Below, one piece after another: positions 1-53,240 of a stretch of 64,000 nucleotides of DNA. Under the pieces are notes generated by a model, which worked only from the letters and a program-made list of their open reading frames with translations, was not told where the DNA came from and did no database searches. Location: NCBI GenBank assembly GCA_021733985.1, contig JAIPJT010000001.1:28981-92980 (forward strand), read 5' to 3'. Position 1 is the stretch's first letter, and every line of letters begins with the position of its first letter. The stretch is from Victivallales bacterium. GTDB taxonomy: Bacteria > Verrucomicrobiota > Lentisphaeria > Victivallales > GWF2-38-69. The position numbers and the translations under genes are program-made.

Positions 1-2
1 GT

Positions 3-1424: not shown

Positions 1425-1447
1425 TATCAATGTCACTGTCCTAAGAT

Positions 1448-4576: not shown

Positions 4577-4578
4577 AA

Positions 4579-8262: not shown

Positions 8263-8311
8263 AACCATCGTACAGAATCTGTACTATTGAATTGGCAAAA
8301 AGCATACTATT

Positions 8312-9160
8312 TTATTTCATCAGCTCCTGGTAGGCATTATTTATACATCTATCCCGATTAAACTGAAGACGTTCTTTGAAGTTTCTCGCTGCATTTATAT
8401 CTACTTCCTGCACCAAACAGTTGTTTTCATTTTCTCCAAGCGAATTTATAACTTTTCCAGATGGCGAGATCACAGAACTTGATCCCATAAAATCAATGTT
8501 GTCTTCTTTTCCTGTTCTGTTTATAATAGCAAAATAAAATCCTCCGGTAATAGCTTGTCCCTTCAACATAGTCAACCAGATATCTTTATGTTTTCTTTGG
8601 AAGCAGCAGCCTGAAACATTACTATAACCTATTGCTGTCGGAGAAAAAACTATATCAGCATCCTTAAGACCGTATATTCTCTGCACTTCAGGAAACCAAT
8701 GATCCCAGCAAATCGATATACCGAAATTTCCAAACTCAGTCTTAAATAAAGGAAACCCCAAATTCCCAGGTTTAAAATAAAATTTTTCTTCATAGAGAAT
8801 ATTTTGAGGTATATGCATTTTCCGATACTTACCAATAATTTTTCCCTCTGGATTAAATACTGCAACCGTATTATAGTAGGCCGTTTTATCCTTTTCAAAG
8901 TAAGGCAGAAGCAAGTATACACTTAATTTTTGTGACAGTTCTCGTGCCATTTTCAACGAAGGCCCTTTTTCATCTTCTGCAAATCTGAAGTTATCAATAT
9001 TCTGCTTTTGAGCAAAATATCTTGTAGGAGCAAGTTCCTGTAATGATATTATTCTGGCACCGGCATTTGCCGCCATATATGAATATTCTCTGATTTTTTC
9101 AAAGTTATCGTTCTGATTATCAGAACAGCTAACCTGTATTAAACCTATTATAGTTTGCAT
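8312..9160 (-). CDS. Carbon-nitrogen hydrolase (nitrilase superfamily), N-carbamoylputrescine amidase-like
   Basis: Glu-Lys-Cys triad context: ISLQELAP, YRKMHIP, ICWDHWFPE. Also EKFYFKPG, PTAIG and FMGSS. Starts 44 nt after the NRPS stop on the same strand. Confidence 0.8.
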   Translation of the reverse strand: MQTIIGLIQVSCSDNQNDNFEKIREYSYMAANAGARIISLQELAPTRYFAQKQNIDNFRFAEDEKGPSLKMARELSQKLSVYLLLPYFEKDKTAYYNTVAVFNPEGKIIGKYRKMHIPQNILYEEKFYFKPGNLGFPLFKTEFGNFGISICWDHWFPEVQRIYGLKDADIVFSPTAIGYSNVSGCCFQRKHKDIWLTMLKGQAITGGFYFAIINRTGKEDNIDFMGSSSVISPSGKVINSLGENENNCLVQEVDINAARNFKERLQFNRDRCINNAYQELMK

Positions 9161-9204
9161 AATTAAATTTCCTATTAAAGTTTATATATCTTTCAACAAG
9201 TTTA

Positions 9205-18200: not shown

Positions 18201-21200
18201 ATTGTTTCTGTGCCTGAATATAAGCAGTATCTCTTTCCTGAATTATGTCTATGCCTGCAGCTAGTTTAAAGTAAGTATCGTGAACATAATTAAAAATAAA
18301 AGGCGTACTCCATCCATCCAGAATTGAATGATGACTATTCATGATCAGAACAAAGTGATTATCTGCCTGTTTTATCAGAGAAAGCCGCATCAGTTCCGGT
18401 TTTTCCAGGTCAAATGGATATTTTCTATCGGAAACTTGTATCTCTTTAATTTTCTTATCAATATCTTCGTTCCCGTTAATATCATGAATTTTTAAGTTAA
18501 GTTCACTCTTTTTACAAATTATCTGTATAGGGTTTTCATCCCAGTTGAAACATAACCTTAACGCCGGATATTTTTTCAGTGCATACTCCCAGGACTTTTT
18601 ATAGAGATTAACGTTAAGATTAATATTATAATCGAAAAGAAGCTGTACCCTGTATGCTTCATCTTCCGGATTTGCCAGAACATAATATATAAAACCCTGC
18701 TGTAAGCTGTTTGCCGGTAAAATGTCTTCAATTTCAAGTCTGTTCTGTAGTTTATCAAGAAGTTCTGAACTGATATCTGCCGCACTGAAATCTGAAGCTG
18801 TAAACTCAGTGTTTTTTTTCTCTGAACAGTGTTTTATTACCTTTTCAAGGTGTTTATTAAAGCTGCCAAACAACTTTTCGGCTTCGTTTTCAGGAAGTTT
18901 TACTGCAACCTCAAAGCTCAGTTTTCCATTACTTACAAAGCCGTTTACGTCTATGATATTATTATTTTTATTCTTAATACTTATGTTTCTGCCTGCTGAC
19001 TGAGGAATTATCTGCCAGTCTTCAGTTTTTGTATTAAATTGACCTAAATAGTTAAAGCTTATTGGCGGTAAACTGTGTTTTGAAAGCTTTTCCGAGTTGC
19101 CAAAATACTTCAAAGCACCGTAGCCTATTCCTTTATTAGGAATACTTCTTAGTGTCTCCTTAATGTTTTTTATTGAATCTTTCAAGCTTTTTTGAAGCTC
19201 CAGTTTTAGCGGAAAGACTGAAGTAAACCAGCCGACAGTCTGTGAAAGGTCAATATCATCGAAAATTTCTTCTCTACCGTGCCCTTCAAGAGTTAAATAA
19301 TTCTGACTCTTCCCGCTCCATTCTTTTAGAGAATACGCAAAGGCCGTTAATAATAAATCATTCACTTCAGTATTATAGGCTTTATTGCTCAAATGCAGCA
19401 GGTTATAAGTATATTCTTCTGAAAGGCCTACTCTATTTATATGATTATTGCCTAAAGTAAATTTCGTATAAACAGGCTGACCTGATATTGTTTTTTCCCA
19501 GAATTCCGTTTCATTTTTATAACTTTCAGCATAACTTTTTACTGCTTTAACCCATTGACGATAACTCGAAGTTTTCCTTCCAGTATCTGTATTATTATAT
19601 ATATCTTTTATATTTTCTTTGATTATTCTCCACGATACTGAATCAATAATCAGATGATGTGCCGCGAAAAATATTCGAGCTGTTCTATCCTCAAAACCAT
19701 AAAGATATGCAATTGACCACATTGGCCCGGTTTTAATATTAAAAACTGACTGAAGATCTGTAAATTTTTTGTATAACTCTGCGTCAGAACAGTTATTTAC
19801 ATTGAGAATGACCACTTCAGGAACATAAGTACTTTTATTATATTTTTGTTTATGGCCATCGAAAGTAGCTCTTAGGATATCATTTCGTTGAGCAAGAATA
19901 TATGGAATATCCTTCAGTTTACTAAAATCCAACTCGGGAACTTTTATCAGAAATGACTGGTTCCAGTGGTTAGGCTCTGCAAAACTGTTTTCAAAAAATT
20001 GTTTCTGCACCGGCAGCAGATCAAATTCCCCTTCCAGAACTCCCTGTTCAGTAGTTGAATGCAGTATTTTGCTGTTCCTATCCTGCAATTCAGAAAGTTT
20101 ATTTATTGTTCTCCTCTCAAAAATATCTTTAATTCCGGCTTTAAAACCTATTTTCCGCATTTTTGATACAAGCTGAATGCTAAGTATGGAATCTCCGCCT
20201 ACCCTGAAAAAGTCATCCTCTATCCCAATTTTATCTATTCCCAATATTTCCTCCCAGATATCGCAAAGCTGTCGCTCTATATCTGTAGTCGGCGGGACAG
20301 AATTAACCGCATCATCCCTGAATCCGGGTTCCGGCAGTTCTTTCTTATCAACTTTGCCGGAAATATTTAGAGGAAATTTATCCATATAAACAAAAACAGA
20401 AGGCACCATATAGTCCGGAAGATGATCTCTCATATATACTTGCAGTTCTTCTTCCAAAGTTGAATGTTGAATGTTGAATGTTGAATTATTAACTGTATAG
20501 TAAGCAGCAAGATATTTATCGCCGGATTCACGCTCTTTACATAGTACCACAGACTGCTTGACTTTCTCATGTAAAGACAGTTTACTTTCTATCTCACCCA
20601 ATTCTACACGGAAATCTCTTATTTTGACCTGCTCATCTCTACGCCCCATGAATTCTATATTGCCGTCAGGTAAATAACGGCAGATGTCTCCCGTTTTATA
20701 TATACGCTGATTACAGACATTCTTTTTGTCCTTATTGGTGGCAACAAAAGGATTAGACATAAAACGTCCTGCTGTTTGCTCCGGACGGCTATAATAACCT
20801 CTTGCCAAACCGTCTCCTCCTATATACAATTCGCCAGGGACACCTACGGGTACAGGCTGTAAAGAAGGATTGAGCAGGTAAACGTGCGTATTGGATATGG
20901 GAGAACCGATAGTTAGCGAATCCTTCAGCTGCCCTCTCTTATATTTTGCAGAAGTAGTGCTAACCGTTGATTCAGTGGGGCCGTAATTATTAATAACAGT
21001 AACTCTCTTGTTCCATACTGCAGCTATGTCAATGTTACAAACATCACCGCCGACGACAACTCTTTTAAGTTTAAAGTCCAAATCCGGGTTTATTACAGGA
21101 AGAAACTGTGACGGAATATTCAGGTGTGTAATATTGTTATTCAGTAAATAAGTTTCAAGACCGTGAACATCATTTAATAATCTATCCGAAATAATAAAAA

Positions 21201-31789: not shown

Positions 31790-33475
31790 CTATTTATTCT
31801 TTTTTGCCCATGAATCTCTAAGAGGTACAGTCCTGTTAAAAACAGGCTTATCTTTTTTAGAATCTTCATCTACACAAAAATATCCAATTCTTTCAAACTG
31901 TATTCTGTCTTCTGGTTTAACATTTTTTAAATATGGTTCGACAAAACATTCAGGAAGTACTTTCAAAGAATCTGAATTCAAGTCATCTATAAAATGTCCG
32001 TCGCTCTCCGGATTTTCCCTTTTAAAAAGCCTGTCATAAAGTCTCACTTCAGCCTTAAGTGCGTGTTGCGCAGAAACCCAGTGGAGCGTCCCTTTCACTT
32101 TTCTTCCATCAGGTGCAGTACCGCCTCTTGATTCCGGATCGACAGTGCAGTGTATTTCAGTTATTTCTCCGTTTTCATCTTTGGTACATCGTGTACATTT
32201 AACTATATAGGCATATCTCAGTCTCACTTCTCTACCCGGCACCATTCTGAAAAACTTTCGCGGGGCTTCTTCCCTGAAATCCTCTTTTTCTATATACAAC
32301 TCTTTTGAAAACGGGACTTTTCTTGTTCCCATGGTTTCATCCTCAGGATTATTTACTGCTGTCATTTCTTCGACCCGCCCTTCAGGATAATTATCAATAA
32401 TCACTTTTACGGGATTTAAAACTCCCATCACGCGAGGAGAGGTCTTATTGAGATCTTCTCTGACACAGTATTCAAGAAGAGATACGTCGATAACCTGTTC
32501 ACGCTTGGTCAAACCGGCTTTTTTTACAAAGTTCTTAATTGCACGCGGTGTATAACCTCTCCTGCGCATACCCGATACAGTGGGCATTCTCGGGTCATCC
32601 CAGCCGAACACTTTGTTTTCCTCCACAAGCTTAATCAGCTTTCTTTTACTCATAACTGTATAAGTAAGATTTAGTCGGTTAAATTCTATCTGCTGTGGTC
32701 GCGGATGAAGGTTAAGCTTTTCTAAAAACCAGTCATACAACGGACGATGTATTTCAAATTCAAGACTGCACAAAGAATGGGTAATCCCTTCAATTGCATC
32801 AGAAAGGCAGTGTGCAAAATCATACATCGGATATATGCACCATTTATCTCCTGTACGGTGATGGCTTACATGTTTTATTCTGTACATAGCGGGATCTCTC
32901 ATATGAATATTTGTGGAGTTCATATCTATTTTGGCACGTAAAGTTTTAGCGCCGTCAGTAAATTCACCGTTTCTCATTCGTTTAAAAAGGTCAAGATTCT
33001 CTTCGATACTTCTGTTTCTGTATGGGCTTTCTTTCCCGGGTGTTGTCAGTGTACCCCGGTATTCTTTTATTTCCTCCATGCTCAAATCACAAACAAAAGC
33101 TTTTCCCATCTTTATCAGTTCTACAGCAAATTCATAAAGCTTTTCATAATAATCTGAAGCATAGAATAAATTATCGCCCCAGTCATATCCCATCCAGTGA
33201 ATATCCCGTTTTATAGCCTGTATATACTTGTCATCCTCTTTAACAGGATTTGTATCGTCGAACCTCAGATGGCATTTTCCGTTCAATTCCTTTGCGATGC
33301 CGAAGTTCAGGCAGAAAGCTTTTGCGTGGCCAATATGAAGATAGCCGTTTGGTTCAGGGGGAAACCTGGTAACAACTTTTCCATCATTTTTATTATTTGT
33401 TATATCCTCATTTACTTTGTTTCTAATAAAATCAAGAGGTTCCTCAGTTTTTGTTTCTGCATATGTTTTTTCCAT
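31790..33475 (-). CDS. glnS: Glutaminyl-tRNA synthetase
   Basis: [17 protein letters not shown] (HIGH) and VMSKRKL (KMSKS). 561 aa with a GlnRS-type C-terminal region. Confidence 0.9.
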
Positions 33476-33501
33476 ATTAATGCATCCTGATATGTTATAA
33501 A

Positions 33502-35148
33502 TTAATCTTTAAAAAGCTTAACAATTTTTTCCATTCTGAAAACTGTATTTTCTTTACCGATTATAATTAATGTTTCTATTAAATCGGCTCCGCCGCTCTT
33601 TCCTGTTACGGAAACCCTTACGGGCTGATTGAGTTTCCCTTCAGGAATATCCAGTTCACTTTCTGCTTCTCTGATACATCTTTCGATATTTTCCGCAGTA
33701 AAAACATCTGTTTTTCTGAATTTATCAGCAACGCATTTTATCCCGGAAATATTAAATGTTTTTTTCAATATTTTTTTTACAGCTTTAGGATCATAGGTGT
33801 ATAGCTTATCTTCAACAGCAGCTTCATCTCCCTGATTATCATGAAAAAGTGGAGAATCATTGAAAAAAAAGTATTTCCAGTCACTGACCATAGAAATCTG
33901 TTTAGTCCTGCCCTGCATAAGTTCAGCAGCTTTTCTGAATTTATCTTTCAGGGCCTCATCAAACCATCCCTGGGACACGGCTTTTTCGAGTGCCAGTTTT
34001 AAAAATGTTTCTTTATCCAGATCAGACATATAAAGTGCATTCATATTTAAAAGTTTATTAATGTCGAACTGGGCAGAAGAACTTTTAACTCTGTCTAAAG
34101 TAAATTTACTTACTATCTCATTTTTATCCATCTTCTCCTTGTCGTCACCTGGAGCCCAGCCTAAAAGTGAGAGATAATTAAACATTGCCTCAGGCATGAT
34201 GCCCCGTATACGAAAGTCTCCTACAAAGGCATCGCCGTCTCTTTTACTGTAAGGTTTTCCCTGTTTATTTACTATCATCGGCATATGACCGTAATAAGGA
34301 GAATTATAGTCCATTGCATAAAAGAGCATCAGATGCCGGTATGTATTTTCAACATGATCATCGCCGCGGATAATATGTGTAACTCCCTGTTCAATATCAT
34401 CACATACATTTGCTATATGAAAAACCGGAGAGCCGTCACTTCTTGCAATAACTAAATCCTTTATACTGTCTAAGGGTTTAGACAGCTTGCCTTTAATCAG
34501 GTCTTTATAAATAATCTCTCTCCGTGTATAAACAATTTTTGAACATTTTTCTAATCTCACGGTTTTAGCTCTGTTAAAAATGCAGCTCACATCACTGTCG
34601 GTCAAAGCATAAACTTTTTGACCGGCACTGTCATAAACTTCGAGGTCCTTGAAACCGGCTATACATCCACTGAACTCTATCGGTTTACCTTTCCTGCTTA
34701 TCTGTGCAAATTTTATGCCTGTATAATCCATTTCCAGCGGTATTTCGGGATGTATTTTCTGTTCAACAGTACCTCTTAACTGAACATATTCGCAATTGTT
34801 CAAATTGAATGGAATCCTGAAAAGTACCGGTCCAGAAGTTTCGTTTCCTTCGGTTCTGACATAAGCCTTTTCTTCTGTTATTAGCTTCTCTATCGTTCTT
34901 TGATGTTCTTTCTCATGCCGACTTTGATAATAAACTTCTCCATCATAGTCAAGACCTAACCATTTCATACACTCAAAGAGCCTATCTATAGCTTCCTGAG
35001 TGGAGCGCTCTTTGTCTGTATCCTCTACTCTCAGTAAAAATTTTCCTCCGGTATGCCTCGCAAATAACCAGTTAAAAATAGCAGTTCTAATATTACCTAT
35101 ATGTATTTTACCGGTAGGGGACGGTGCAAATCTTACTTTTACAGTCAT
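33502..35148 (-). CDS. gltX: Glutamyl-tRNA synthetase (enlarged insertion domain)
   Basis: [28 protein letters not shown] and [11 protein letters not shown] 35148 is preceded by AGGA; an in-frame ATG at 35166 is an alternative start. Confidence 0.85.
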
Positions 35149-35435
35149 ATTTTTTATCCTTAACATAAATTTATAATAAAAAACAAGCTATAAAGATATC
35201 TTAAATCCCTGCAAAATCAATCTTTATACGCAGCTAACGAAGATAAAAAAAGGTTCACCCTGCCAGGAAAGAACAGTAAGAACCAGTACGCGAGTGGATG
35301 GGCATTTCTATTCGGACTTCTTCAAATATTAATAAAAAAAAGGCTAAATATTCATTTAAAGCAGCTTACTGTAAATAAAATATATCTATTTTTTATAAAT
35401 TATTTTACGGATTCAGGTTAGAGAATATTTGATCT

Positions 35436-37451
35436 TTATTCAAATTTTTTATTAGATTTTTCATCAGATATAGCACCGTTTGCTGAATAAAATTTGCCGA
35501 TACTTTCAATAATATTTTCAATTCTATCCATCTCATTTTCATTGATCCTCTTCATCCCGTATTTTATTCTGCAGAAAATATCTGTAATAAAATTGATATC
35601 ATCGTAATTATTTACATTATTTTTATATAAATAATCAAGAAACTCATAAGGTGTCAGATTATCAGGTTTTTTTATACTGTATTTTTCGAGGATTCGGAGC
35701 AGCCTGTCATAAAAATGTTTTATATTCTGTTTTTTTCTTTTCCGCCAATGAAGAGTGAATTTATTTTTTTTAATACCGAAAAAAACGAGACCTGAGAAAG
35801 ACAGTATTCCTAATATCAAAAGAATATATAAAAAAATTCTATTAATAAAAATTCCGGCCATTTTTATAAGACGACCAATATCTTTTATAAAAATCAATTG
35901 GTCTCCATAGGTTAAATTTACTATTTTCGAATACCATATATACTCAATATAATCGTATAAACGTTTATAAAGGGGTTCCTTTATTTTCTGGAAATCCAAG
36001 GCTGCCTCATCTGCAGGTGTAGCGTCCATATTTATCCAACCTCTGTCTCTGAAATAAGCTTCGGTCCAGGCATGAGAATCTTTAATTCTTATATTATAAT
36101 AATTACCGAAATTATTCTTTTCTTTTGCCATATATCCTACAGCAACTTTAGCCGGTATATCGAGTGCCCTCAGCAGTACTGCCAGAGCGGATGCAAACCT
36201 GCCGCAATGGCCCCGTTTCTCTTTAAAGATAAAATTTTCGACCGGGTTTTTTTCTTTCAGCTTCGGTGCCCCAAGCTCATATTTGAAATTACTGTTAAGA
36301 TAGCTGCATACAGCCTGAGCTTTTTCATATTTATCTTTTGTATTTTTAGTTAGGTTCAACAGCCATTTTTTTAATTTTTCAGAAATCCCCCCGGTTTTTG
36401 TCAGTCGTTTAAATGTTCTGTCGGATAATGCAGGAATATTTTTCTTTCTACGAATCCAGTATTCATAATTCTTATTTTTTCTGGGCACATTCTCGTGAAT
36501 AATAATATTACCGATTCTTGTCAAAAAAGGATTGTCAAAGAAATTCCCTTCTATGTATTCAACCTTCCCGTCAACAGGGAGAAACTTGGAGTTAAAATTG
36601 CTGTAACGTACATTCACCTTTCTGTAAATATAGTCCATTAAATTTTCATTTTTTGTATATTTATCGACACACAGATAACCGTAATAGCTTATTGACCACA
36701 AATCGCCGTCAAACTTATCCATAGAGAAACTTTTAAAATACATTAGACTGTCAGCATATACCTGAAATAATATCACATTATTTTTACTGTCTTCTTCAGA
36801 AGCAGATTCATTAGAAGTTTTCAGTTCGGGTTTAGTAAAATAAACAGGTTTTTTCTGAATATTTCCGAAATTTGAGTAAAATCTTGTATTCGATTCAAAG
36901 TTAATTCTTGGAAATAGCAGAAAGAATAAAATAGCAGAAGAAAATATAATCAGATATTCAATCTTATGCTTTAAAAATTTAAATTTAATCGGATTTATAT
37001 TATCAACCGATGCCTCCCTGTAATTAATTTGAAAAAGGATTTTGGGAACTAAAATTATTGTTAAGATAAGCACTGCAGCAAACATATAATTGAGGAAGAC
37101 CTGTGCACCAATTGCTATCTGAGTTAATGCAATAGCAAGAGTAAATATTTTCCTTCTGTAATCAAGTCTGTATGTCATTCGGAGCAGCTGGAGTACAGCC
37201 AGGGCATTCCCAAGCCCCATACATTTCTCAAAAAGATTGTCCCCGATAAACAGATAGAAAAAAATTAAAAATGTTAAAATCAGAAAAAATTCACTTAAAT
37301 CACCGAAGAATTTCCTGTTAAGATTTAACGAACACAGTAACAACCACAATAAGCAGTAAACAAAAAGTAAATAATAGGTATCCCAGGTCATACCCTGGCA
37401 AATAAGACCAATCAGGATCAGTATATTCAGAGGTGACTTCAAATTTTCCAT
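35436..37451 (-). CDS. Membrane-anchored transglutaminase-like protein (TgpA-like)
   Basis: About 6 N-terminal TM helices. Cys-His-Asp core: RGHCGRFASALAVLLRALDIPAKVAVGY, DSHAWTEAYF, WINMDATP. A C-terminal TM helix plus tail follows. Confidence 0.85.
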   Translation of the reverse strand: MENLKSPLNILILIGLICQGMTWDTYYLLFVYCLLWLLLCSLNLNRKFFGDLSEFFLILTFLIFFYLFIGDNLFEKCMGLGNALAVLQLLRMTYRLDYRRKIFTLAIALTQIAIGAQVFLNYMFAAVLILTIILVPKILFQINYREASVDNINPIKFKFLKHKIEYLIIFSSAILFFLLFPRINFESNTRFYSNFGNIQKKPVYFTKPELKTSNESASEEDSKNNVILFQVYADSLMYFKSFSMDKFDGDLWSISYYGYLCVDKYTKNENLMDYIYRKVNVRYSNFNSKFLPVDGKVEYIEGNFFDNPFLTRIGNIIIHENVPRKNKNYEYWIRRKKNIPALSDRTFKRLTKTGGISEKLKKWLLNLTKNTKDKYEKAQAVCSYLNSNFKYELGAPKLKEKNPVENFIFKEKRGHCGRFASALAVLLRALDIPAKVAVGYMAKEKNNFGNYYNIRIKDSHAWTEAYFRDRGWINMDATPADEAALDFQKIKEPLYKRLYDYIEYIWYSKIVNLTYGDQLIFIKDIGRLIKMAGIFINRIFLYILLILGILSFSGLVFFGIKKNKFTLHWRKRKKQNIKHFYDRLLRILEKYSIKKPDNLTPYEFLDYLYKNNVNNYDDINFITDIFCRIKYGMKRINENEMDRIENIIESIGKFYSANGAISDEKSNKKFE

Positions 37452-38605
37452 AACTTGCTCCTTCCAAAAAAGAAACAGTTTGGAGTAATATTTAAAACCT
37501 CTTTTATTAATTGGTCATTCTTATACATTTCAGGTATATAGACAGACTTCTTTTTCTGTTCTGTCATTTTATTCTTGACTTCCTCAACAGCAAGTTTGTC
37601 TAATTTTGAAAGAATAAAAGCCTGTGATGCTTTTCTGGAAAAAGAAGGTCTTTCTACAGGCTTACCTTTCGATTCGGGCTCGTGTTTATCTGATTTGAGT
37701 GCGGTTAGATATTCCAGTATTTCCGTATCTCCGAAAAAAGGCGAAGCCTTGAAATAGTTACTGAAGCTGAAATCAGCGATTTCTATGCTATGTCCTAAAT
37801 CAAGTGCTGAAAAAGCAAGAGATCCCAGAGCTCTGACAGCCGAATTTAAAACATTTTTATTCCGCTCATTTATATTATCCTTGAGTTGTATGAAAAATGT
37901 AATTTTCCCTGAAAATTCCTCTCTGAACTCTTTCACATACAACCCCTGTCCTCTTGAACTGGCTTTCCAGTGAATAAATTTTACAGGATCTCCTTTGGTA
38001 TAGGGTCTTATTCCCGAAAAATCCTCCCCAAAAAGAGTTGAATGATACCCTTTATAATGCCCGCCGAGCATCGGTTCAAAACCGGATGCAGGAGGTGAGG
38101 CAGCAGGATACAGCTCTGGATAAACTTTTATGATTCCTTGGTATCTAAGTTTTCTGTAAGTAGTGAAAAGACCAAATGGATTCAGCGTTTCAATAGAAAG
38201 TTTATCAAGCCTGTATATTCCCATTGCATAAAAAACCGCTTTAGGAGTAATATGTTTTATGTTTTTGCCTTTAATATAATCAACAGAACACAGAATTCCT
38301 AAATCACTTTTAAGTGTTACACAACATACACCTTTCCGTGATGAATTGACAACCTTTATTTCTGTGTCAAAAGGTTTTCCCTCTGTCGTTATAAGTTTAT
38401 TTAAGCCGTAAAAAGTAAGGGCCCTTGCCCCAAATATGCCGTATATGAAGTCTGTTAAAATCACACCGATAACAATACCCAAAAATAAATACATAAGACC
38501 GGTTTGTGACATAATTGAAAAAACATAGAAAAGCAGCAGCAGAAACATAAGGAAAAGACCGGCTTTAGTCGGTTTAACTTTTATTTGCATAATTAGACGG
38601 TCCAC
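37439..38605 (-). CDS. DUF58 family protein (vWA-like)
   Basis: Two N-terminal TM helices. Signature FSGIRPYTKGDPVKFIHWKASSRGQGLYVKEF. Overlaps the transglutaminase gene by 13 nt. Confidence 0.8.
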   Translation of the reverse strand: MDRLIMQIKVKPTKAGLFLMFLLLLFYVFSIMSQTGLMYLFLGIVIGVILTDFIYGIFGARALTFYGLNKLITTEGKPFDTEIKVVNSSRKGVCCVTLKSDLGILCSVDYIKGKNIKHITPKAVFYAMGIYRLDKLSIETLNPFGLFTTYRKLRYQGIIKVYPELYPAASPPASGFEPMLGGHYKGYHSTLFGEDFSGIRPYTKGDPVKFIHWKASSRGQGLYVKEFREEFSGKITFFIQLKDNINERNKNVLNSAVRALGSLAFSALDLGHSIEIADFSFSNYFKASPFFGDTEILEYLTALKSDKHEPESKGKPVERPSFSRKASQAFILSKLDKLAVEEVKNKMTEQKKKSVYIPEMYKNDQLIKEVLNITPNCFFFGRSKLWKI

Positions 38606-38606
38606 A

Positions 38607-39338
38607 TTAGCAGTTCTTTTTTCGGATTTGAAAATCTATATTTACTTTAACATTGACATTTATTGTTCCGGGATTGACAGGGACGCTGTCTGCTGCATCT
38701 GCTTTTTCCATTGTAAACATTGCATTAGAATATCGTCTGGAAGGTACATAAAAGTTGCTGATACTTATATCAAGGATTTTTACTGTTTCCTGTCCGGTTG
38801 CCTTAAGCAGGGCATCGGCATCCTTTTCAGCGTTTTTAACAGCTGTTTCAATAGCCTCAGCCCTGTATTTATAGGGATTTGAAAGGCTGAATGTTATATT
38901 GCTTATGTTATTCGCCCCGGCCGCTACAGCTTTCTGGATAAGGTGTCCTATTGCATCCATTTTTTTTGATTTCACATTGAAACCATTGTCCACCTGATAT
39001 CCGACAATTTCTCTTTTCCAGTTACCGGGAGCGTTTTTAGGCCTTCTGGAAAAGACAGGCTTTACAGAAAAACCTGAAGTTTTATATTCCTTCTTATTTA
39101 TTCCTACTTCAGTTAAAACTTCTTTGACCTTCCCCATTTTTTCAGAATTAATTTCCATTCCATTTTCGGCTGATTTGTCAATTACTTTGACGCCAATACT
39201 CATTTCGAACTGATCAGCGGGAACCTCTACTTTGCCACTGCCCTGAACTGACATTCTGGAAATACAGTCTTTGTTTTGGACGGCAAAACAAGTAAGCGAT
39301 AAAAACAGTGCACCGGCAAGGATTATTAATTTTTTCAT
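38607..39338 (-). CDS. SIMPL/DUF541 periplasmic protein
   Basis: Signal peptide MKKLIILAGALFLSLTCFA. Family-like region IVGYQVDNGFNVKS...AAGANNISNITFSLSNPYKYRAEAIETAVKNAEKDA. Its stop is 1 nt from the DUF58 start. Confidence 0.8.
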   Translation of the reverse strand: MKKLIILAGALFLSLTCFAVQNKDCISRMSVQGSGKVEVPADQFEMSIGVKVIDKSAENGMEINSEKMGKVKEVLTEVGINKKEYKTSGFSVKPVFSRRPKNAPGNWKREIVGYQVDNGFNVKSKKMDAIGHLIQKAVAAGANNISNITFSLSNPYKYRAEAIETAVKNAEKDADALLKATGQETVKILDISISNFYVPSRRYSNAMFTMEKADAADSVPVNPGTINVNVKVNIDFQIRKKNC

Positions 39339-45403: not shown

Positions 45404-47812
45404 CTATGTCAAAGTTTCAATTGTTTTAAGCAGGTTGCTCTGATCAAACTGACTTTTTACTATATACGCATTGGCACCAGCATCAACACCGCGTTCTTTA
45501 TCTTCATCTGATGATAATGATGTAACAAGTATGACCGGAATATCAGCAAGTTTGCTGTCCGCCTTGATTTTTCTTGTCAGTGCAAAACCGTCCATTCTGG
45601 GCATCTGTATATCAGATACAACCAGATCAATGTCTTTAGTTTTTAAAACAGTTACAGCAGCCACACCGTCTACTGCTGTTTCGACATTATAGCCGGCTGA
45701 TTCCAAAATATTTTTCAGCAGTATCCTTGAAGTAATAGAATCTTCTACTACGAGGAGGTTATTAGTTTTTCTGCCCTCTTTTTCTTCTCTCTTTTCTTCT
45801 TTTGTGTTAAAATCTTTTCCCGTAGTTATTCCGCTGGTATTGAGATTTTTAGCAGTAAAAAACAGGTCCTGTATATTAAGGATAGGCACAATTTCTCCAG
45901 AAGTTAAAATAGTAGCACCGGAAATGTTCTCGATTTTTCTGAGCTGACATCCGAGGTCTTTCACTAGGATCTCCTGTTCCTCCAAAATATTGTCAACTTT
46001 AATTGCCATAAACTTATTGTTCTTTTCTAAAATAACTGCAGTCAATATATTTTCATCTACTTCCTTTTTTTCATTGTTTTCATCTGCAGAAAGGTTGAAT
46101 GCAAATGCTAAATCGACAAGCGGATAAGTTTTGTCATTGTATACAAGCGTTTCTCTATTCTCTATTCTTTTTATGGACGGCTCTTTTATTCTGATAACTT
46201 TTTCGACATTTATACTTGGGACGGCAAATAACCGTTTATTAATTTCAAGGAGAACTCCCTTGAAAGTGGAAAGAGCAACAGGAAGAGAGAGTTTTACTGT
46301 TGTCCCTTTCTCTGATTCTGAAGTGACAGATATTTTTCCACCAAGTTTTTCGAGTCTTTCCTTTACAATAGTAAGACCGAGACCCTGTCCGGAAATATCA
46401 GTAATAATATTTTTTGTAGAAAACCCTGAAAAAAAGAGTCTGTCGATAAGTTCATCTTTAGTCATTTTAGCTGCGGAATCATCTTTAATTGCCCCCTCAT
46501 TAATAAGTTTGTTTTTAACTGCATATTCGTCGATACCCTTTCCGTCATCTTCTATTTCAATTTCTATCTTATTACTTTCAGACTGAAAAACTTGCAGTTT
46601 AATATTTCCTTTTTCTGTTTTCCCGGCAATCTTCCTTTCTTCGGGCATTTCAATTCCGTGATCAATACAGTTCCTTATCAAGTGAATAAGCGGGTCTTTC
46701 ATTTCCTGGAGAATTCTTCTATCTATCTGGTTATCTTCTCCGGTTATTTTAAAATTAACATCCTTTTTGAGTTCTTTTGATATATTTTTTACCATCCTTG
46801 GAAAGTATGAAAGTATATTTGAAAATGGCAGCATAGCTACCTCCTTAATATTGTATAAAAAACTGTCAATCATTTTTTCTGCATTTCTGAAGTTATCCTT
46901 TTCTATATTTCCCAGGTTTCTTATGGAATTTTCAATATCTTTTATTTTTATCTGGAGCTGCCCAAGAAAATCAGTAAGATATTTAATGGATGTTCTTTCT
47001 TCTGCTCTCTGGTTCATTCCCTCTGTCTTTAAAAACTGTTTAAGGAAAATCAAATCCGGCTGTGTTTTGTTGTAACTGTGCTTTATAAACTCAAACTGTG
47101 AAATTATTCTGTTGATCGACTCGCTGTTGTCCTTAAACATCTGTTTAATTCTTATTAAATTTTCAGATTTAAGCAGCAGGGAATCGAGCTTTGCCGACGT
47201 TATTCTGACGGTATCTCTTCCAGCAGAGGCTGTGTTCAGTTCATCTTTATTTTTTTCTTCAGTTTCGCTTGCAGAAGTTACTGTCTTTTTCCCTGTTTCT
47301 TTATTTTTATTTTGCTGTGGATTTTCCTGTTTTATCTCTGATACTTCGCATTTCTCTTCAGCTCCTTGAGGTTTTTCTTCAGTCTGCTTAGGTAAACTCT
47401 TTTTTATATTCTCTATACTGCTTTCGAAATATTTCTGAAGTTGTGAAATCTTTTGCTTGTCTTCAAGAGACTCAATGTTGTTTTCCTGCAGAATATCGTC
47501 AAGCTTGTTCATAGTTTCCTGAATAAGTTCAGAAATTTCCGGAGTGAACTCTTTTTTCTTTTCCTTTATATCAGTAAGTAAGGTTTCAAGTAACTGAAAA
47601 AAACTTTCGAAATGTGAAAGGTTTATCGATCTTGCTGCACCTTTCATGCTGTGCATATCGCGAAAAACAGTATCTGTAAGCTCTTGTGACTTCTTGCTGT
47701 TATCTTCTGTCTGTTCAATTTCAATAAGACAGTTTATAATGCTGTTAAGTCTTTCTTTAGCTTCCTGCATAAAGACTGTTTTAAGCTCTTTTCCTAAGGT
47801 TTTTTCATCCAT
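45404..47812 (-). CDS. cheA: Hybrid chemotaxis histidine kinase CheA with C-terminal receiver domain (WspE-like)
   Basis: HPt domain (DMHSMKGAARSINL). Low-complexity linker. HATPase domain (HLIRNCIDHGIE, DDGKGID, GQGLGL). CheW-like P5 domain. REC domain (LLVVEDS...VSDIQMPRMDG...K). Confidence 0.9.
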   Translation of the reverse strand: MDEKTLGKELKTVFMQEAKERLNSIINCLIEIEQTEDNSKKSQELTDTVFRDMHSMKGAARSINLSHFESFFQLLETLLTDIKEKKKEFTPEISELIQETMNKLDDILQENNIESLEDKQKISQLQKYFESSIENIKKSLPKQTEEKPQGAEEKCEVSEIKQENPQQNKNKETGKKTVTSASETEEKNKDELNTASAGRDTVRITSAKLDSLLLKSENLIRIKQMFKDNSESINRIISQFEFIKHSYNKTQPDLIFLKQFLKTEGMNQRAEERTSIKYLTDFLGQLQIKIKDIENSIRNLGNIEKDNFRNAEKMIDSFLYNIKEVAMLPFSNILSYFPRMVKNISKELKKDVNFKITGEDNQIDRRILQEMKDPLIHLIRNCIDHGIEMPEERKIAGKTEKGNIKLQVFQSESNKIEIEIEDDGKGIDEYAVKNKLINEGAIKDDSAAKMTKDELIDRLFFSGFSTKNIITDISGQGLGLTIVKERLEKLGGKISVTSESEKGTTVKLSLPVALSTFKGVLLEINKRLFAVPSINVEKVIRIKEPSIKRIENRETLVYNDKTYPLVDLAFAFNLSADENNEKKEVDENILTAVILEKNNKFMAIKVDNILEEQEILVKDLGCQLRKIENISGATILTSGEIVPILNIQDLFFTAKNLNTSGITTGKDFNTKEEKREEKEGRKTNNLLVVEDSITSRILLKNILESAGYNVETAVDGVAAVTVLKTKDIDLVVSDIQMPRMDGFALTRKIKADSKLADIPVILVTSLSSDEDKERGVDAGANAYIVKSQFDQSNLLKTIETLT

Positions 47813-47858
47813 AATCGAATCCTTGAAATGCTATTTAGTGTCGAATTATTTTGATTTA

Positions 47859-47871
47859 TGATTTTAGATAT
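47859..47871 (-). promoter_or_regulatory. Shared 13-mer ATATCTAAAATCA upstream of cheA (possible -10/operator)
   Basis: The exact 13-mer also occurs upstream of mcp2 at 52402-52414. Both are preceded by AATCAAA. It contains TAAAAT. Confidence 0.3.
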
Positions 47872-47948
47872 ATAATTTTTGATTGAAATTGTTTATCCGC
47901 GAATTTCAAAAAAGAACTAAATGTTTATAATTTATAGATCTATTAGCC

Positions 47949-48133
47949 AATGCTATTGAATTAAGAGGCTTACTTTCGGAATCATCAGCCGTCGTACAGA
48001 AGTTGCTGTACTATGGCCGACACAGAAGGATTGATTTCCTTCTCCACAAACTGCTGAACACATGGAGTAAACCAGTCCCCCTGGTTCCGTAAACAAAGCA
48101 ATATCAATAATTTTGCCTTAATTCAACGGTATT
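47949..48133 (-). repeat. Structured TIR-bounded (MITE-like) repeat, copy 1
   Basis: Terminal inverted repeats aatgctATTGAATTAAG (47949-47965) and CTTAATTCAAcggtatt (48117-48133). Internal hairpins GTACAGaagttgCTGTAC and AGAAGGAttgattTCCTTCT. Core 47975-48036 is identical to copy 2. Confidence 0.8.
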
Positions 48134-48141
48134 GATTACCA

Positions 48142-49749
48142 TTAACATATAAAGTCTGCTGTTTTTTCTTTTAGATTTTTACTTAATTCATTAATTTCGA
48201 CAGAAGCTGCTTCGAGTTTTCTGGCTGCTTCAGCATTATTTCCTGAAGAGTCTTTTATACTTTTCATTGCTTCAGCTAGTATTCTTATACCTTCGAGTTG
48301 TTTTTTTCGTGACATAGTAAGGCCGTTAATTGTTTCTGAAATAGATCCGAGCAGCTCCGTTTTCTGCATAAAATCTTCACTGAATGCTGTAGCCCTATCA
48401 ATAAATCCAGCAGTTTTATTCTGTATTTCTTCAATTGTAAGAGAACATTTCTGGGAAGCATCCTGCACAGCTTTAAAAGCTTCTTCAGCATTGTTAAGTG
48501 AATGTGTCGAACAGGATGAAAGGTTTTTTATTTCTTTAGCAATTACAGAAAATCCTTTACCGTGTTCACCTGCTTTGCTTGCCTGAACAGAAGCATTAAC
48601 GGAAAGAATCCTTAACTGAATTCCGATTTCTTTTATTTTATCAATAAAGTTTTCCATACCGGTTGCCTGTTTGTTCATATCAACAAGAAATTCCGATACT
48701 TCTTTCAGCTTATTCTTGATATCTTTAATTTTTTTAAAATCAGTAGCTTCATCCATATTTTCCATAAGCTGCTGTATATTATTTTCGTTCTTTTCGAGAG
48801 TAACTGTGGTATTGCTGTAGTAAACCTCCGTAGCCTGTTTCAGGTCTTCCATTGCGGCATCCATATGTTCTATTGCACTTGAATTGGAAACAGATTCGTT
48901 AGCCAAATCTATTGATGAGCTGGAAAGTTTTCCGGAATGACCGTCAAGAGCGGTTGCTTCTTTTTTCAGACTTCCCACCAGTTCCTGAAGATTTCCTATA
49001 AACAAATTAAACCATTTGACCAACATACCGATTTCATCATTTTTTTCGAGTTCAATGCGTTTTGTTAGATCCGCTCTTCCGTCTGCAATTTCTTTCATAT
49101 TAAACTTAATTCGGTCAACAGGCTTTCTAATACGGTTCGACATTAAAGAAGATATAACTGCAAAAATAACTATTACTGCTACAGAAGAAATAAGGATACC
49201 TGAAAGAGTATAATTCACTGCCTGGGCTTCCTTTTGTTTTCTTTGAGCCATCAGTTTTTCCTCATTATTATAAAAGTGACGTATTTTATTTCTTATTATT
49301 TGCAGATATTTATCTCCGAGCTTCATTCTTGTAATATTATCTAAAGTTGAATCATTTTTACCTTTACCCTGAAGTGAAACAATAAATTTATCAGCTTCAT
49401 ATAACCATTTTTTTATCTTAGGACCAATATTCTTCAGCATTTCTTTCTGTGACTGAGTCCAGACGATATCCATTAGTATCCTTAATTCATTCCTGAGCCT
49501 TTTTTTGTCTTTTTCATATTGTTTTTTGAATTTTTTATCACGGAATATCGTGAAGTTCCTTATATTGATCTCAAGCCTTTCCAGATATTTTTCAAGCAAC
49601 AGAGAATGTTTGATCATTTGAGAAGAATGTATAACATATTCAGTAGTGCCGAGAAGCCTGTTTACGCTCGACCAGGTGATTAAAGTTACAATAAGTATTA
49701 GAACTACTGTACTGCAGCTCCATAAAGTCAGTTTTGTTTTTAATCTCAT
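48142..49749 (-). CDS. Methyl-accepting chemotaxis protein with CHASE3-like sensor and HAMP
   Basis: TM helix, periplasmic helical domain, second TM helix and HAMP (DEIGMLVKWFNLFIGNL). Signalling tip ILSVNASVQASKAGEHGKGFSVIAKEIKNLS. Confidence 0.85.
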   Translation of the reverse strand: MRLKTKLTLWSCSTVVLILIVTLITWSSVNRLLGTTEYVIHSSQMIKHSLLLEKYLERLEINIRNFTIFRDKKFKKQYEKDKKRLRNELRILMDIVWTQSQKEMLKNIGPKIKKWLYEADKFIVSLQGKGKNDSTLDNITRMKLGDKYLQIIRNKIRHFYNNEEKLMAQRKQKEAQAVNYTLSGILISSVAVIVIFAVISSLMSNRIRKPVDRIKFNMKEIADGRADLTKRIELEKNDEIGMLVKWFNLFIGNLQELVGSLKKEATALDGHSGKLSSSSIDLANESVSNSSAIEHMDAAMEDLKQATEVYYSNTTVTLEKNENNIQQLMENMDEATDFKKIKDIKNKLKEVSEFLVDMNKQATGMENFIDKIKEIGIQLRILSVNASVQASKAGEHGKGFSVIAKEIKNLSSCSTHSLNNAEEAFKAVQDASQKCSLTIEEIQNKTAGFIDRATAFSEDFMQKTELLGSISETINGLTMSRKKQLEGIRILAEAMKSIKDSSGNNAEAARKLEAASVEINELSKNLKEKTADFIC

Positions 49750-49756
49750 AATTTAA

Positions 49757-49940
49757 TCGGTTATTAGTTATCGGTTATCGGTGAAATATTCTTCTACTTC
49801 TTCGCTAATACAAAAATCTGATCAGTTAAAGAATAAACTTCTTCTTTTGGGAACTTTTTAGTGAGTCTAAAAATTGCATCAGCTACATTCTGAGCTTTTT
49901 GATATACTTTCAAATCTCTAAAGCTGTCAGCATGTTCCAT
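49757..49940 (-). pseudogene. Internally deleted four-helix-bundle protein gene (23S rRNA intervening-sequence protein family) with heptamer-repeat tail
   Basis: ATG at 49940 gives MEHADSFRDLKVYQKAQNVADAIFRLTKKFPKEEVYSLTDQI, matching the family N-terminus. The frame then stops at 49794-49796 after 48 codons. Another frame reads ISEEVEEYFTDNR across cgataac-type heptamers (49757-49782). Confidence 0.6.
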
Positions 49941-49957
49941 TTCACTATTCACTTCTC

Positions 49958-50178
49958 AATGCCGTTGAATTAAAACAAAATTATTGATTTTGCTTAGTCT
50001 ACAAAACCATCAGTCTTCGCTTGAAGCTACGCCAAGACACCGGGGAACCGATTCCCTCCAACACGATTTCTGTATTTTGTGGAGGGAATCAATCCTTCTG
50101 TGTCGGCCATAGTACAGCAACTTCTGTACGACGGCTGATTGATGATTCCGAATGCATAATCCTTAATTCAATGACATC
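49958..50178 (+). repeat. Structured TIR-bounded (MITE-like) repeat, copy 2 (inverted relative to copy 1)
   Basis: Terminal inverted repeats aatgccGTTGAATTAAA (49958-49974) and CTTAATTCAATgacatc (50162-50178). A 10-bp stem ATTCCCTCCA...TGGAGGGAAT. Core 50087-50152 equals the reverse complement of 47975-48036 except for a 4-nt tgat duplication. Confidence 0.8.
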
Positions 50179-50207
50179 GATTCAGTTCTCACCGTTCACT
50201 TCACAAT

Positions 50208-52376
50208 TCAGTTCTTCTTCCTGTTTTCTTTTTCTTTTTTAGTTTTAGCTGTGGTTTCGGTATCGTCTCTATGCTCTTCCTCATATTTTTTTATTTTATC
50301 TTCGTCAAGCAGCGAATGTTTCTTATCTTCCTGGCCGACATTGTAGGCGTTTGCCATATCCTGGAGTTTCTGTGAAAGGTCTGTCAGAGAATTAGCTAAT
50401 TCTTCGAGTTGCTTAGAGCCTTCTGTATTCTGAGTAAGGCCTTCTTTTATATTTTCCATTGTTTGTACAAGCTGTTCCATACCGGACAGTTCCTGTTTGC
50501 TTGAACTTGAAATCTGTTCATTAGCTTCAGCAGCTTCCGAAATACTCTCACTTAAAGTATTAATCGTTTTCCTTGCTACAGAGGAAAGGTCAAGGCCTTC
50601 CTTAACAGCATTACTTCCACGTTCAGTAGCTAACACCGCATTACTTGAAGCTTTTTGGATATCGTTAAGTATATTGCTGATCTGTTTTGTTGCCTCTCTA
50701 GACTGCTCAGCAAGGTCTTTAACTTCTTTAGCCACAACAGCAAATCCTTTACCGTATTCACCGGCTTTAGCGGCTTCGATTGAAGCATTGACGGACAGAA
50801 GGTTTGTTTGGTCCGCGAGATTGTTAACTGAATCAATAATTTCACCAATATTTTGAGTCTGCTCTCCAAGCTTTATTGTACTTTGAGCAATATAATTCAT
50901 CTCTTTATCTATTTTATTTATTCCTTCAATAGTTTTTTCAGTAGCTTCGCGCCCTTCTGAAGCAATTTCTTCTGTTTTTCGTGCTTTTTCTGAAATTTCT
51001 GTAGCTTTTTCTGAAGTTGATTCACTTATTTGTTTAATCTGCTCGACCGTAGTACTTATTTCAGTAACAGAAGTTGAAGATTCAGCCGTACTTGAAGCAA
51101 GCTGAGTTGAAGTAGCAGAAATTTCGTTTATTGAGGCAGAAAGCTGTGTAGATCCAGAAGCCATTTCAAGTATCTGATTTTTTAAAGATTCAATCATTTC
51201 TCTGAAAGAAACAAGCAGAGAAGATATTTCATCTTTAGTTTTTCTTATCGGAATATCTATTGTAAGATCTTTATCTTTTGCAATGGAGTTCGCTTTGGAA
51301 GCCAGTGAAATAATAGGTTTTGATATGCTATTTGAAAATATTAATCCTAAAATAATTACCGAGATAATGATTATTGAAGAGGCTATAATTATATTATATA
51401 TAAGCTGATTAACAGGCGCAAAAGCCTCCTCCGCATCAATCTCAGAAATGACTGCCCAGTTTTTGACATCAGATACAATGCCTTTCAGTTCATCAAAATG
51501 GAAGGCACCATAAGATGAAAAAACGTCTTTCCCTCTGTAGTCCTCTATTATTCCAAAACCTTCTTTGTCCCTTAAGGATTCAATTACCGCGACTGTTTTA
51601 ACTCTTCTATTGAGAATAGAGTCTTTTCCATTTAAATCAAACCTCGAATCTGAACGCATAAGGAAATCTTCCCCGACAAGATAGGTTTCACCGGTTTTAC
51701 CCAGCCCTGTGCGCTCATTCATAATCTCGTCTATTGTTTTAGGAACAATTTGAACAGCTAAAACAAATTCTAATTTATTATTTTCATCAAAAATTGGAAT
51801 GGATAAATACATTGTTACTCTGTCATCGTAGTATGGATCTTTTGCAAATCCGACAATAGCAAGCTTTCCGCTTTCTTTTGCCAGTTTAAAAGCTTTTGCC
51901 AGATTACTGTCTTTTTTATCCATTACTTCCTTGTTAAAATATTCAGGATGTTCGTGTGAATAAAGAAAATGACCTGCATCACAAAATGCGATAATATCAG
52001 GCCGGTCATAAATTTTCATGTAATTTTGTATACATTTTGCCGCTTCTTTCCGAATGTTTTTGTCGTATTTTACTTCGCCGGGTTTTGCTTTATGGATTTC
52101 AACCTGATGTTTTGAAAGCAATTCTTCAAGAATTATATGAAGTTCTCTTGACTGAGAAAACACTTTAATTCCTTTTTCTAAATCTTTAAAAAAGGTGAGG
52201 AGCTGGTTTGTTTTTATTACCCTGATCGCATTAAGTTTATTTAATTCTTCCTTTATCAACGCTTCTCTCGATTCCTTGATTGAGAAGTAAGCAATTATGA
52301 TAATAGGGATAACCGCAATAGCAATGAAGATAGATATCAGCCTGCGTTTTAAGGTTTTAGTGAAAAGTCCAAACAT
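50208..52376 (-). CDS. Methyl-accepting chemotaxis protein with double-Cache-like sensor and HAMP
   Basis: 722 aa. Periplasmic region of ~300 aa (GETYLVGEDFLMRSDSRF). HAMP. Tip LLSVNASIEAAKAGEYGKGFAVVAKEVKDLAEQS. GGAGGG RBS upstream. Confidence 0.9.
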   Translation of the reverse strand: MFGLFTKTLKRRLISIFIAIAVIPIIIIAYFSIKESREALIKEELNKLNAIRVIKTNQLLTFFKDLEKGIKVFSQSRELHIILEELLSKHQVEIHKAKPGEVKYDKNIRKEAAKCIQNYMKIYDRPDIIAFCDAGHFLYSHEHPEYFNKEVMDKKDSNLAKAFKLAKESGKLAIVGFAKDPYYDDRVTMYLSIPIFDENNKLEFVLAVQIVPKTIDEIMNERTGLGKTGETYLVGEDFLMRSDSRFDLNGKDSILNRRVKTVAVIESLRDKEGFGIIEDYRGKDVFSSYGAFHFDELKGIVSDVKNWAVISEIDAEEAFAPVNQLIYNIIIASSIIIISVIILGLIFSNSISKPIISLASKANSIAKDKDLTIDIPIRKTKDEISSLLVSFREMIESLKNQILEMASGSTQLSASINEISATSTQLASSTAESSTSVTEISTTVEQIKQISESTSEKATEISEKARKTEEIASEGREATEKTIEGINKIDKEMNYIAQSTIKLGEQTQNIGEIIDSVNNLADQTNLLSVNASIEAAKAGEYGKGFAVVAKEVKDLAEQSREATKQISNILNDIQKASSNAVLATERGSNAVKEGLDLSSVARKTINTLSESISEAAEANEQISSSSKQELSGMEQLVQTMENIKEGLTQNTEGSKQLEELANSLTDLSQKLQDMANAYNVGQEDKKHSLLDEDKIKKYEEEHRDDTETTAKTKKEKENRKKN

Positions 52377-52604: not shown

Positions 52605-53240
52605 TTATTTCACTATGATATCCTGGTCGTCCAGAATTTTTTCTGCATCAAGAATTATAGTCTGTTCCCCTGTCAAACCGTAAAAGAATTTTTTTCTAAT
52701 ATCGTCAAAAGTGTCTACGGTTTTCTGTATAGTATTGAAAAATATTTTTTTTATTCCGATAACATCATCTGCAGCTACAGCAAAAGCGATATTTTCTTTG
52801 CCTAATACCACCATTTTCTTATGTTTAGTATTTTCTCTTTTATTCATTTGAAAGAAACTTCTTATATCGAGGACAGAAATGATCTGTTCCTGAACAGCTG
52901 TTACGCCTATTACATAGTCCGGAGTAAAAGGAATTGGAGTAAGGGTGTCGAGTGAAGCTACAAGTTTTGTATAACCGGCCTCAAAAGCATAAACCTCGTC
53001 ATTGAGAAGAAATTCAACTATGTTTATAAACTCATCATCTTCTCGGCTGTCATCTACTTCTTTTGCAAGTTCAAGTGCCCTTTGTTCGAGTATTTTGTTT
53101 TTATCTTTATCAAAATTCTTTTTTTTATCATTATTTTGGTTTTCAGAGTTTTGTTCTTCTTTAGAATGATCTGTTTCAGGACTTTCGCCCTCCTGTGTAA
53201 TGTTTATTTCTTCATTTTTTGGATCGGTATTTTCAGTCAT
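52605..53240 (-). CDS. cheW: CheW-like coupling protein with acidic/Lys-rich N-terminal extension
   Basis: The C-terminal ~140 aa are CheW-like (FLLNDEVYAFEAGYT...VIGVTAVQEQIISVLDIR). The first ~70 aa are low complexity. Confidence 0.8.
   Translation of the reverse strand: MTENTDPKNEEINITQEGESPETDHSKEEQNSENQNNDKKKNFDKDKNKILEQRALELAKEVDDSREDDEFINIVEFLLNDEVYAFEAGYTKLVASLDTLTPIPFTPDYVIGVTAVQEQIISVLDIRSFFQMNKRENTKHKKMVVLGKENIAFAVAADDVIGIKKIFFNTIQKTVDTFDDIRKKFFYGLTGEQTIILDAEKILDDQDIIVK

Follow-up and report, generated by a model that had tools for sequence, protein, structure and literature searches.

Two inverted copies of a probable MITE-like element with a conserved internal hairpin block in a chemotaxis operon of a Victivallales bacterium

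[quoted passage not shown] Chunjie, a MITE found in Geobacter uraniireducens Rf4 (Chen et al. 2008), is, as far as its description in these two sources goes, rich in A+T and 178–235 bp long, ends in TIRs of 21 bp, is flanked by direct repeats of 9 bp and folds very stably; 38 full and 57 partial copies are reported in one genome, as is an insertion into an operon that left it undisrupted (PMC3184786, PMC10969869). The Correia elements of Neisseria and the ERIC/IRU elements (enterobacterial repetitive intergenic consensus/intergenic repeat units) of Enterobacteria are small TIR-bounded repeats that lie between genes or within operons in either orientation and are co-transcribed with them; at the RNA level the stems of Correia are cut by RNase III and those of ERIC expose RNase E sites, and Correia holds an internal binding site for integration host factor (PMC3184786, PMC10969869). 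Here we analyse a stretch of 64,000 nucleotides (the window; positions 28,981 to 92,980 of contig JAIPJT010000001.1, assembly GCA_021733985.1) from an uncultured Victivallales bacterium of the phylum Lentisphaerota, in which two copies of a small TIR-bounded element occupy junctions of a chemotaxis (che) operon. These copies are probably independent insertions of a non-autonomous MITE-like element and represent two diverged members of a subfamily. The elements belong to an ordinary, known class, and the only thing unusual about them is an internal hairpin block that is perfectly conserved.

The copies, their ends, their conserved core and the putative target-site duplication are located as follows (window positions).

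47948–48134, plus strand: copy 1, 187 bp, delimited by its alignment to copy 2 and its TIR pair; predicted fold −58.5 kcal/mol, z = −5.2
49957–50179, minus strand: copy 2, 223 bp, delimited by its alignment to copy 1 and its TIR pair; predicted fold −82 kcal/mol, z = −6.5
47948–47965, plus strand: left TIR of copy 1, CAATGCTATTGAATTAAG
48117–48134, minus strand: right TIR of copy 1, CAATACCGTTGAATTAAG as read on that strand
47975–48036, plus strand: core of copy 1, 62 nt, an exact match to the core of copy 2
50087–50152, minus strand: core of copy 2, 66 nt with its ATCA duplication included
49947–49956, no strand: direct repeat on one side of copy 2, ATTCACTTCT, one half of the putative target-site duplication
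50180–50189, no strand: direct repeat on the other side of copy 2, ATTCAGTTCT

Alignment shows the two copies to be homologous and mutually inverted: the 'top' strand of copy 1 is the plus strand of the window and is antisense to the che operon, and that of copy 2 is the minus strand, in the same sense as the operon. The original prediction, made from the sequence alone, had already recognized two inverted homologous copies of 185 and 221 bp, and its boundaries fall within 1 nt of the refined ones. The TIRs, which it put at about 17 bp, are 18 nt long and 83% complementary in each of the two copies. All four element ends (CAATGCTATTGAATTAAG, CAATACCGTTGAATTAAG, CAATGCCGTTGAATTAAA and CGATGTCATTGAATTAAG) follow a single common pattern, in which TTGAATTAA is invariant. 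Identity reaches 62 of 62 positions in the core, 85% in the right 54 nt, and 82% at the aligned positions outside the core, where there are also several indels; a 32-nt extra block (50010–50041) is present in copy 2 only. The figure of 82% comes from a gap-aware global alignment of copy 1 with copy 2; with MAFFT the middle of the element appears unalignable. The earlier statement that most of the element had diverged overstated the extent of the divergence.

Several lines of evidence argue for insertion of a MITE-like element, which was one of the three readings first offered for this locus. The copies are small (187 and 223 bp) and lack a transposase gene, they are bounded by TIRs, and they have stable predicted fold-backs. 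Open reading frames (ORFs) crossing them encode 21–73 amino acids (aa) and are not conserved between the copies beyond the core; searches with these spurious ORFs and with a concatenated six-frame translation found no protein relatives of any of the six frames in a collection of 5.8 billion sequences. On either side of copy 2 stands a direct repeat of 10 bp, ATTCACTTCT and ATTCAGTTCT, which matches at 9 of 10 positions (empirical P of a match of at least 9/10 at such spacing in the window, 2.4e-4), or at 11 of 12 if the CA dinucleotides at 49957–49958 and 50190–50191 are counted.

The junctions themselves are free of the element in relatives, so that filled and empty sites can be set side by side. 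The closest relatives that turned up for CheA show 63%, 60%, 53% and 52% identity, and the gene order CheW, methyl-accepting chemotaxis protein (MCP), MCP with a CHASE3 domain, CheA is kept in those whose DNA was examined. In L077, one of these (CheA identity 53%), the MCP genes overlap each other and 23 nt separate MCP from CheA; the gap between MCP and CheA is 81 nt in L076 (CheA identity 63%), and the junction gaps in L079 (CheA identity 52%) and L080 measure 105 and 125 nt. No element sequence was found by sensitive blastn in the loci of L076, L077, L079 and L080. The receptor gene stands in place in these relatives without the elements; therefore, the receptor gene is ancestral and the elements are lineage-specific additions. 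A scan of GTDB by way of CheA returned only distant homologues, at most 45% identical, none of them with the element.

The element ends offer a lead as to its origin. In the IS4 subgroup of the IS4 family of insertion sequences (IS), the end consensus is -AATR--------WTW---- and the direct repeats measure 10–13 bp (Table 1 of De Palmenaer et al. 2008, PMC2266710). Of the present ends, three match this consensus in full (they carry CAATG, CAATA and CAATG), the fourth, with CGATG, matches at 6 of 7 positions, and every end has TTA at positions 14–16. At 10–12 bp, the direct repeat flanking copy 2 falls within the range of the subgroup. For the IS231 subgroup, conservation of the left end beyond the TIRs has been described (PMC2266710), with which the conserved block lying 27–88 nt from the left end of the present elements fits. 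The IS4 subgroup differs in its defining feature, a DDE/YREK transposase, as there is no transposase gene in the element or among the scanned ORFs of the window. Derivation from the IS4 family, suggested by the ends and the duplication length, is accordingly put forward as a lead. We envisage that the elements would have been moved in trans by a DDE transposase.

Several points weigh against interpreting the copies as MITE-like insertions. Only two copies are known; sensitive blastn found no further one in the remainder of the 64-kb window or in 6 kb of adjoining sequence. No autonomous IS with the TIRs of the element was found in our searches. Copy 1 has no convincing target duplication: nothing at its flanks exceeds 5 matches in 6, the best candidate being ATTAGC/ATTACC. 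The empty sites come from distant relatives, with CheA proteins 52–63% identical, and not from strains of the same species. Finally, the fit to the IS4 consensus concerns seven partly degenerate positions and could arise by chance at a level that we roughly estimate at a few per cent.

The wider searches bear on copy number only in part, as the source metagenome-assembled genome (MAG) lies outside the DNA collections scanned (the window's own copies went unmatched there) and negative results in them are silent on the rest of the genome. A 21-mer from the core had no match among the GTDB species representatives, and patterns for the core hairpin and for the right end had none in the JGI metagenomes. 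In IMG/VR, the core had no match, the right-end pattern had a single chance match (L078) without other similarity, and the TIR pattern had 45 single, unpaired chance matches. BLASTN against plasmid and phage records gave nothing meaningful. No transposase was detected among the window ORFs of at least 150 aa scanned with Pfam, a set that excludes three ORFs at 35436–39338. Assembled Logan contigs (SRR12088347) stop inside the elements: L001 covers 48100–49990, L075 starts at 48002 and L081 ends at 50148. These contig ends lie 28–55 nt within the element ends, which are not the positions expected from two copies and a shared 53-mer alone. Such breaks could reflect further copies or variants in the sample, or low coverage; we give them little weight because the same contigs also end at ordinary non-repetitive intergenic sites.

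The odd feature of the element is its core. The core of copy 1 is the reverse complement of that of copy 2 without a single substitution, and the identity first reported for this 62-nt block is confirmed, its sole break being a 4-nt tandem duplication of ATCA within 50136–50143 of copy 2. The longest unbroken identity is 53 nt (47984–48036 against the reverse complement of 50087–50139), and given the 82% background a perfect run of this length has a chance probability of about 5e-4. Judged from the two sequences, the core, which begins 27 nt from the left end of the element, is better conserved than the rest, with a contrast milder than originally held. It contains an extended hairpin, at 47988–48017 in copy 1, in which GCCGT/ATGGC pairs enclose GTACAG-AAGTTG-CTGTAC and all pairs are unchanged in both copies. 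The motif GTACAG-N6-CTGTAC occurs in the window only in the two copies, against 0.01 occurrences expected by chance.

Both strands of both copies are predicted to fold far better than dinucleotide shuffles (minimum free energy −58 to −82 kcal/mol, z −3.4 to −6.5). A two-sequence consensus structure, built from the plus strand of copy 1 and the minus strand of copy 2, has 54 pairs, none of them broken, one compensatory change and 12 wobble-compatible one-sided changes; it consists of a TIR stem, a long-range stem CGGAAUC/GGUUYYG, the core hairpin, a 13-pair middle stem and a small right-hand hairpin. The compensatory pair (U-A to C-G), along with some wobble changes, sits in the middle stem, which both copies share. 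A second stem had been proposed to be kept by different sequences in the two copies; the stem is indeed preserved, with its one compensatory pair, but the two copies share CTCCA/TGGAG as the same homologous sequence. The consensus suggested a strand-specific RNA signal, which a direct comparison of the strands failed to uphold: copy 1 folded equally well on either (−57.0 versus −57.5 kcal/mol) and copy 2 favoured one of them (−79.3 versus −67.8 kcal/mol). Rfam gave no match at the gathering threshold anywhere in the window, and at E up to 10 only noise, far below gathering, within 47850–50300. Neither a sigma-70-like promoter nor an intrinsic terminator was detected inside the copies. The suggestion that the core is a functional module therefore stands as regards its stronger conservation, but finds no backing in an Rfam match, a consistent strand preference in folding, a promoter or a terminator. 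Covariation, or a role of the core as a functional RNA or as a protein-binding module, is beyond what two sequences can establish. A functional core is plausible only as a cis-acting module for transposition.

We propose that the core would be such a subterminal cis-acting module, for example a binding site for the transposase or a host factor, or a hairpin. It would have been conserved in the transposing lineages behind both copies while the remaining interior drifted. Most differences between the copies would then be differences between transposing source elements, with the inner halves of the TIRs, the core and the right subterminal region selected for transposition. Alternatively, gene conversion between the copies could have made their cores identical. 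We favour the conserved module of the source elements over gene conversion because flanks that are 82% identical and contain indels offer a poor start for conversion on so short a tract, and because the patchy conservation is what cis-acting sites predict.

The genes around the elements all lie on the minus strand, in the order CheW, MCP, copy 2, four-helix-bundle fragment, MCP, copy 1, CheA.

52605–53240, minus strand: CheW gene
50208–52376, minus strand: upstream MCP gene, 722 aa, dCache-HAMP-MCPsignal (Pfam)
49794–49952, minus strand: truncated four-helix-bundle gene (23S_rRNA_IVP family; PF05635, E = 2.4e-9), between copy 2 and the CHASE3-MCP gene
48142–49749, minus strand: bracketed MCP gene, 535 aa, CHASE3-HAMP-MCPsignal (Pfam), in orthologous order in relatives
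45404–47812, minus strand: gene for a CheA-CheY hybrid kinase, its protein 100% identical to MCF7790399.1 and its start codon 135 nt from copy 1

According to Pfam, the neighbourhood comprises CheW, the two MCPs, CheA, a phosphatase and a flavodoxin-like reductase. Each of two spacers holds one copy: copy 2 lies in the 458 nt between the MCP genes, and copy 1 in the 329 nt between MCP and CheA. Both elements adjoin MCP stop codons, as had been noted, although the distances are 7 nt (from the stop codon at 48142–48144 to copy 1) and 28 nt (from that at 50208–50210 to copy 2) instead of 8 and 30. Most likely, the present-day copies are transcribed along with the operon as passengers.

Of the 106 positions in the profile, the four-helix-bundle fragment retains roughly the first 35; it corresponds to the NCBI product MCF7790401.1 (48 aa, 'four helix bundle protein'). 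Its GTG start is overlapped by the direct repeat of copy 2; therefore, the four-helix-bundle gene predates the insertion of the element. The relatives have no such gene at the MCP–MCP junction, and we found nothing relevant in the literature on a link between the element and four-helix-bundle (23S rRNA IVP) genes. A heptad tandem repeat, ATCGGTT × 3.9, occupies 49756–49782, directly upstream of the start codon of the CHASE3-MCP gene; an array that binds protein is one possible reading, debris left when the four-helix-bundle gene was truncated another.

The inverted layout of the copies around a single receptor gene invites other explanations. It seems unlikely that the pair has been co-opted to control this one chemoreceptor, be it through homologous inversion across a 53-bp core maintained by gene conversion or through a double-stranded RNA (dsRNA) of about 166 bp offered to RNase III. 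If this were true, it would amount to population-level or post-transcriptional tuning of receptor composition. In the RNA version of the idea, which we regard as improbable, the pair would be an exapted regulatory device: the copies in the che mRNA would base-pair over about 166 bp and loop out the CHASE3-MCP cistron, and the resulting RNase III target would lower the level of that receptor or uncouple it from the others. Both copies do lie in one string of co-oriented genes with no promoter or terminator detected between them, they flank exactly one gene, and the 64-kb window holds no other copy. In a single polycistronic RNA the inverted copies would thus pair around the MCP cistron into a substrate of the RNase III type; cofolding predicts 166 intermolecular pairs and −253 kcal/mol for the duplex, compared with −137 kcal/mol when the two copies fold separately. 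For Correia elements, moreover, it is documented that RNase III cleaves MITE stems in mRNAs (PMC10969869). However, the arms are 2 kb apart and the local fold-back of each copy would come first during transcription, there is no sign of selection for the arrangement, and the relatives do without it. The predicted pairing is a side effect, automatic for any inverted pair, with no demonstrated function.

It is decidedly unlikely that the elements are immobile and represent a structured non-coding RNA gene or a protein-binding module, with the 'TIRs' forming a closing helix. The strongly stable folds of both copies, the 54-pair consensus with no pair broken and its compensatory and wobble-compatible changes, and the perfect conservation of the hairpin core are all what such an RNA or module would display. 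However, Rfam has no matching family, neither a promoter nor a terminator was detected, folding differs between the strands in copy 2 only, and covariation exceeds what two sequences can establish. The copies are also oppositely oriented with respect to transcription of the operon, so that read-through would produce at most one of them in the 'right' sense. Insertion is favoured instead by the direct repeat around copy 2 and by the absence of the element from relatives.

We consider it very unlikely that the copies serve as a recombination switch, in which homologous recombination across 53–62 bp of inverted identity would invert the segment 48037–50086 and put the CHASE3-MCP gene in antisense orientation relative to the operon; the core would then be a footprint of gene conversion. 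A perfect inverted identity of 53 nt at a distance of 2 kb is a possible substrate, MITEs have been described as hotspots of homologous recombination, and inversion at a Correia element has been reported (PMC10969869). Conservation of the core above its flanks is also what concerted evolution would give. For RecA-dependent recombination, however, 53 bp is near the minimum length for efficient exchange, and flanks as diverged as these are poor for starting conversion. Among the scanned ORFs of at least 150 aa (with the same three ORFs at 35436–39338 outside the scan), none was recognized as an invertase or recombinase gene, and the relatives fetched show the orientation found here. The Logan contigs (SRR12088347) show no junction of the alternative orientation, but they stop inside the elements and are uninformative on this point. 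The inversion switch of the original prediction thus gained no positive evidence, and the unbroken identity on which it would rely is 53 bp, not 62.

The remaining candidates were rejected. A site-specific invertible switch of the Hin/Gin/Fim type lacks a recombinase domain in the neighbouring genes and the other ORFs scanned. An integron attC site is suggested by an imperfect palindrome of comparable size, attC acting as a folded single strand, and by the GTTGAAT/ATTCAAC contained in the TIRs. The core-site consensus of attC is RYYYAAC...GTTRRRY; here the order is reversed on either strand (GTTGAAT...ATTCAAC), and the neighbours are che genes, with no integrase or cassette array. Domain V of a group II intron would share an AGC-containing core hairpin, but there is no Rfam match, and neither the loop nor the bulge fits; for a tRNA-derived element, the window yielded no tRNA; the frames of a supposed small protein gene are not conserved between the copies; and a composite transposon importing the MCP gene is at odds with relatives that hold the same MCP in the same place without the elements.

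Outside the two copies, the best match to the core in the window is a third hairpin.

8267–8289, plus strand: possible solo remnant of the core hairpin, recognized by alignment, between convergent MFS and CN-hydrolase genes

Over hairpin and flanks, CCATCGTACAGAATCTGTACTAT at this position agrees with CCGTCGTACAGAAGTTGCTGTACTAT in 22 of the 23 positions aligned; its loop is shorter by 3 nt. The score was equalled in 1 of 20 shuffled windows, a borderline window-wide significance of about 0.05. The recurrence of the stem originally noted at 8269–8287 is therefore real as a hairpin but of borderline significance, and it could be either what is left of a core or a hairpin that arose by chance between the convergent genes. 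Just downstream of it, TATTGAATTGGCAAAA recalls the TIR region of the element.

Elsewhere in the window, a single ORF of 4663 aa on the minus strand (9205–23196) encodes a non-ribosomal peptide synthetase with four condensation, three adenylation and three carrier domains; a single methyltransferase is embedded in it and a thioesterase stands at its end. Such a gene is unusual cargo for a Lentisphaerota genome. Two tandem genes for class-I aminoacyl-tRNA synthetases of the Glu/Gln type lie on the minus strand at 31790–35166, one with C-terminal domains of the GlnRS type and the other with an anticodon-binding domain of the GluRS type. Positions 1–9467 are 99.99% identical over 9.5 kb to a contig of a second, more fragmented MAG from the same study (L128; GCA_021734965.1, JAIPHV010000046.1).

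If confirmed, the MITE-like element would add a MITE family, probably derived from IS4, to the Lentisphaerota, a little-studied phylum of the Planctomycetes–Verrucomicrobia–Chlamydiae (PVC) group; no reports of such elements in this phylum turned up, and no literature search was aimed at them. The locus offers a clear example of MITEs in tight operon junctions with the flanking genes intact. For annotation, the elements account for two unannotated structured intergenic blocks and for the breaks of short-read assemblies there. Inside the element, the conserved hairpin block could be the mark of a cis-acting signal for transposition. With its inverted layout around a single chemoreceptor gene, the pair lends itself naturally to testing for inversion mediated by MITEs or for dsRNA processing; nothing so far shows either.

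Compared by description only, the elements share with Correia and ERIC their small size, their TIRs and their position within an operon, and with Correia also an internal motif. They differ in that no promoter was detected in the copies, in showing no sign of an integration host factor site or of processing, and in the host phyla. Correia elements duplicate a TA dinucleotide, as against about 10 bp at copy 2. The closest described analogue in form appears to be Chunjie, as far as its published description allows such a comparison: size (187 and 223 bp here), A+T-richness, TIRs of about 20 bp, a direct repeat of 9–10 bp (here around copy 2), stable predicted fold-backs, length variants and insertion within an operon with the flanking genes intact are all shared. 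Within the same limits of that description, the present elements differ from Chunjie in their number, two known copies against 38 full and 57 partial ones, and in belonging to a host of another phylum, the Lentisphaerota. Two further features set them apart from Chunjie as described: their two inverted copies bracket one gene, and their internal block is better conserved than the tips of their TIRs.

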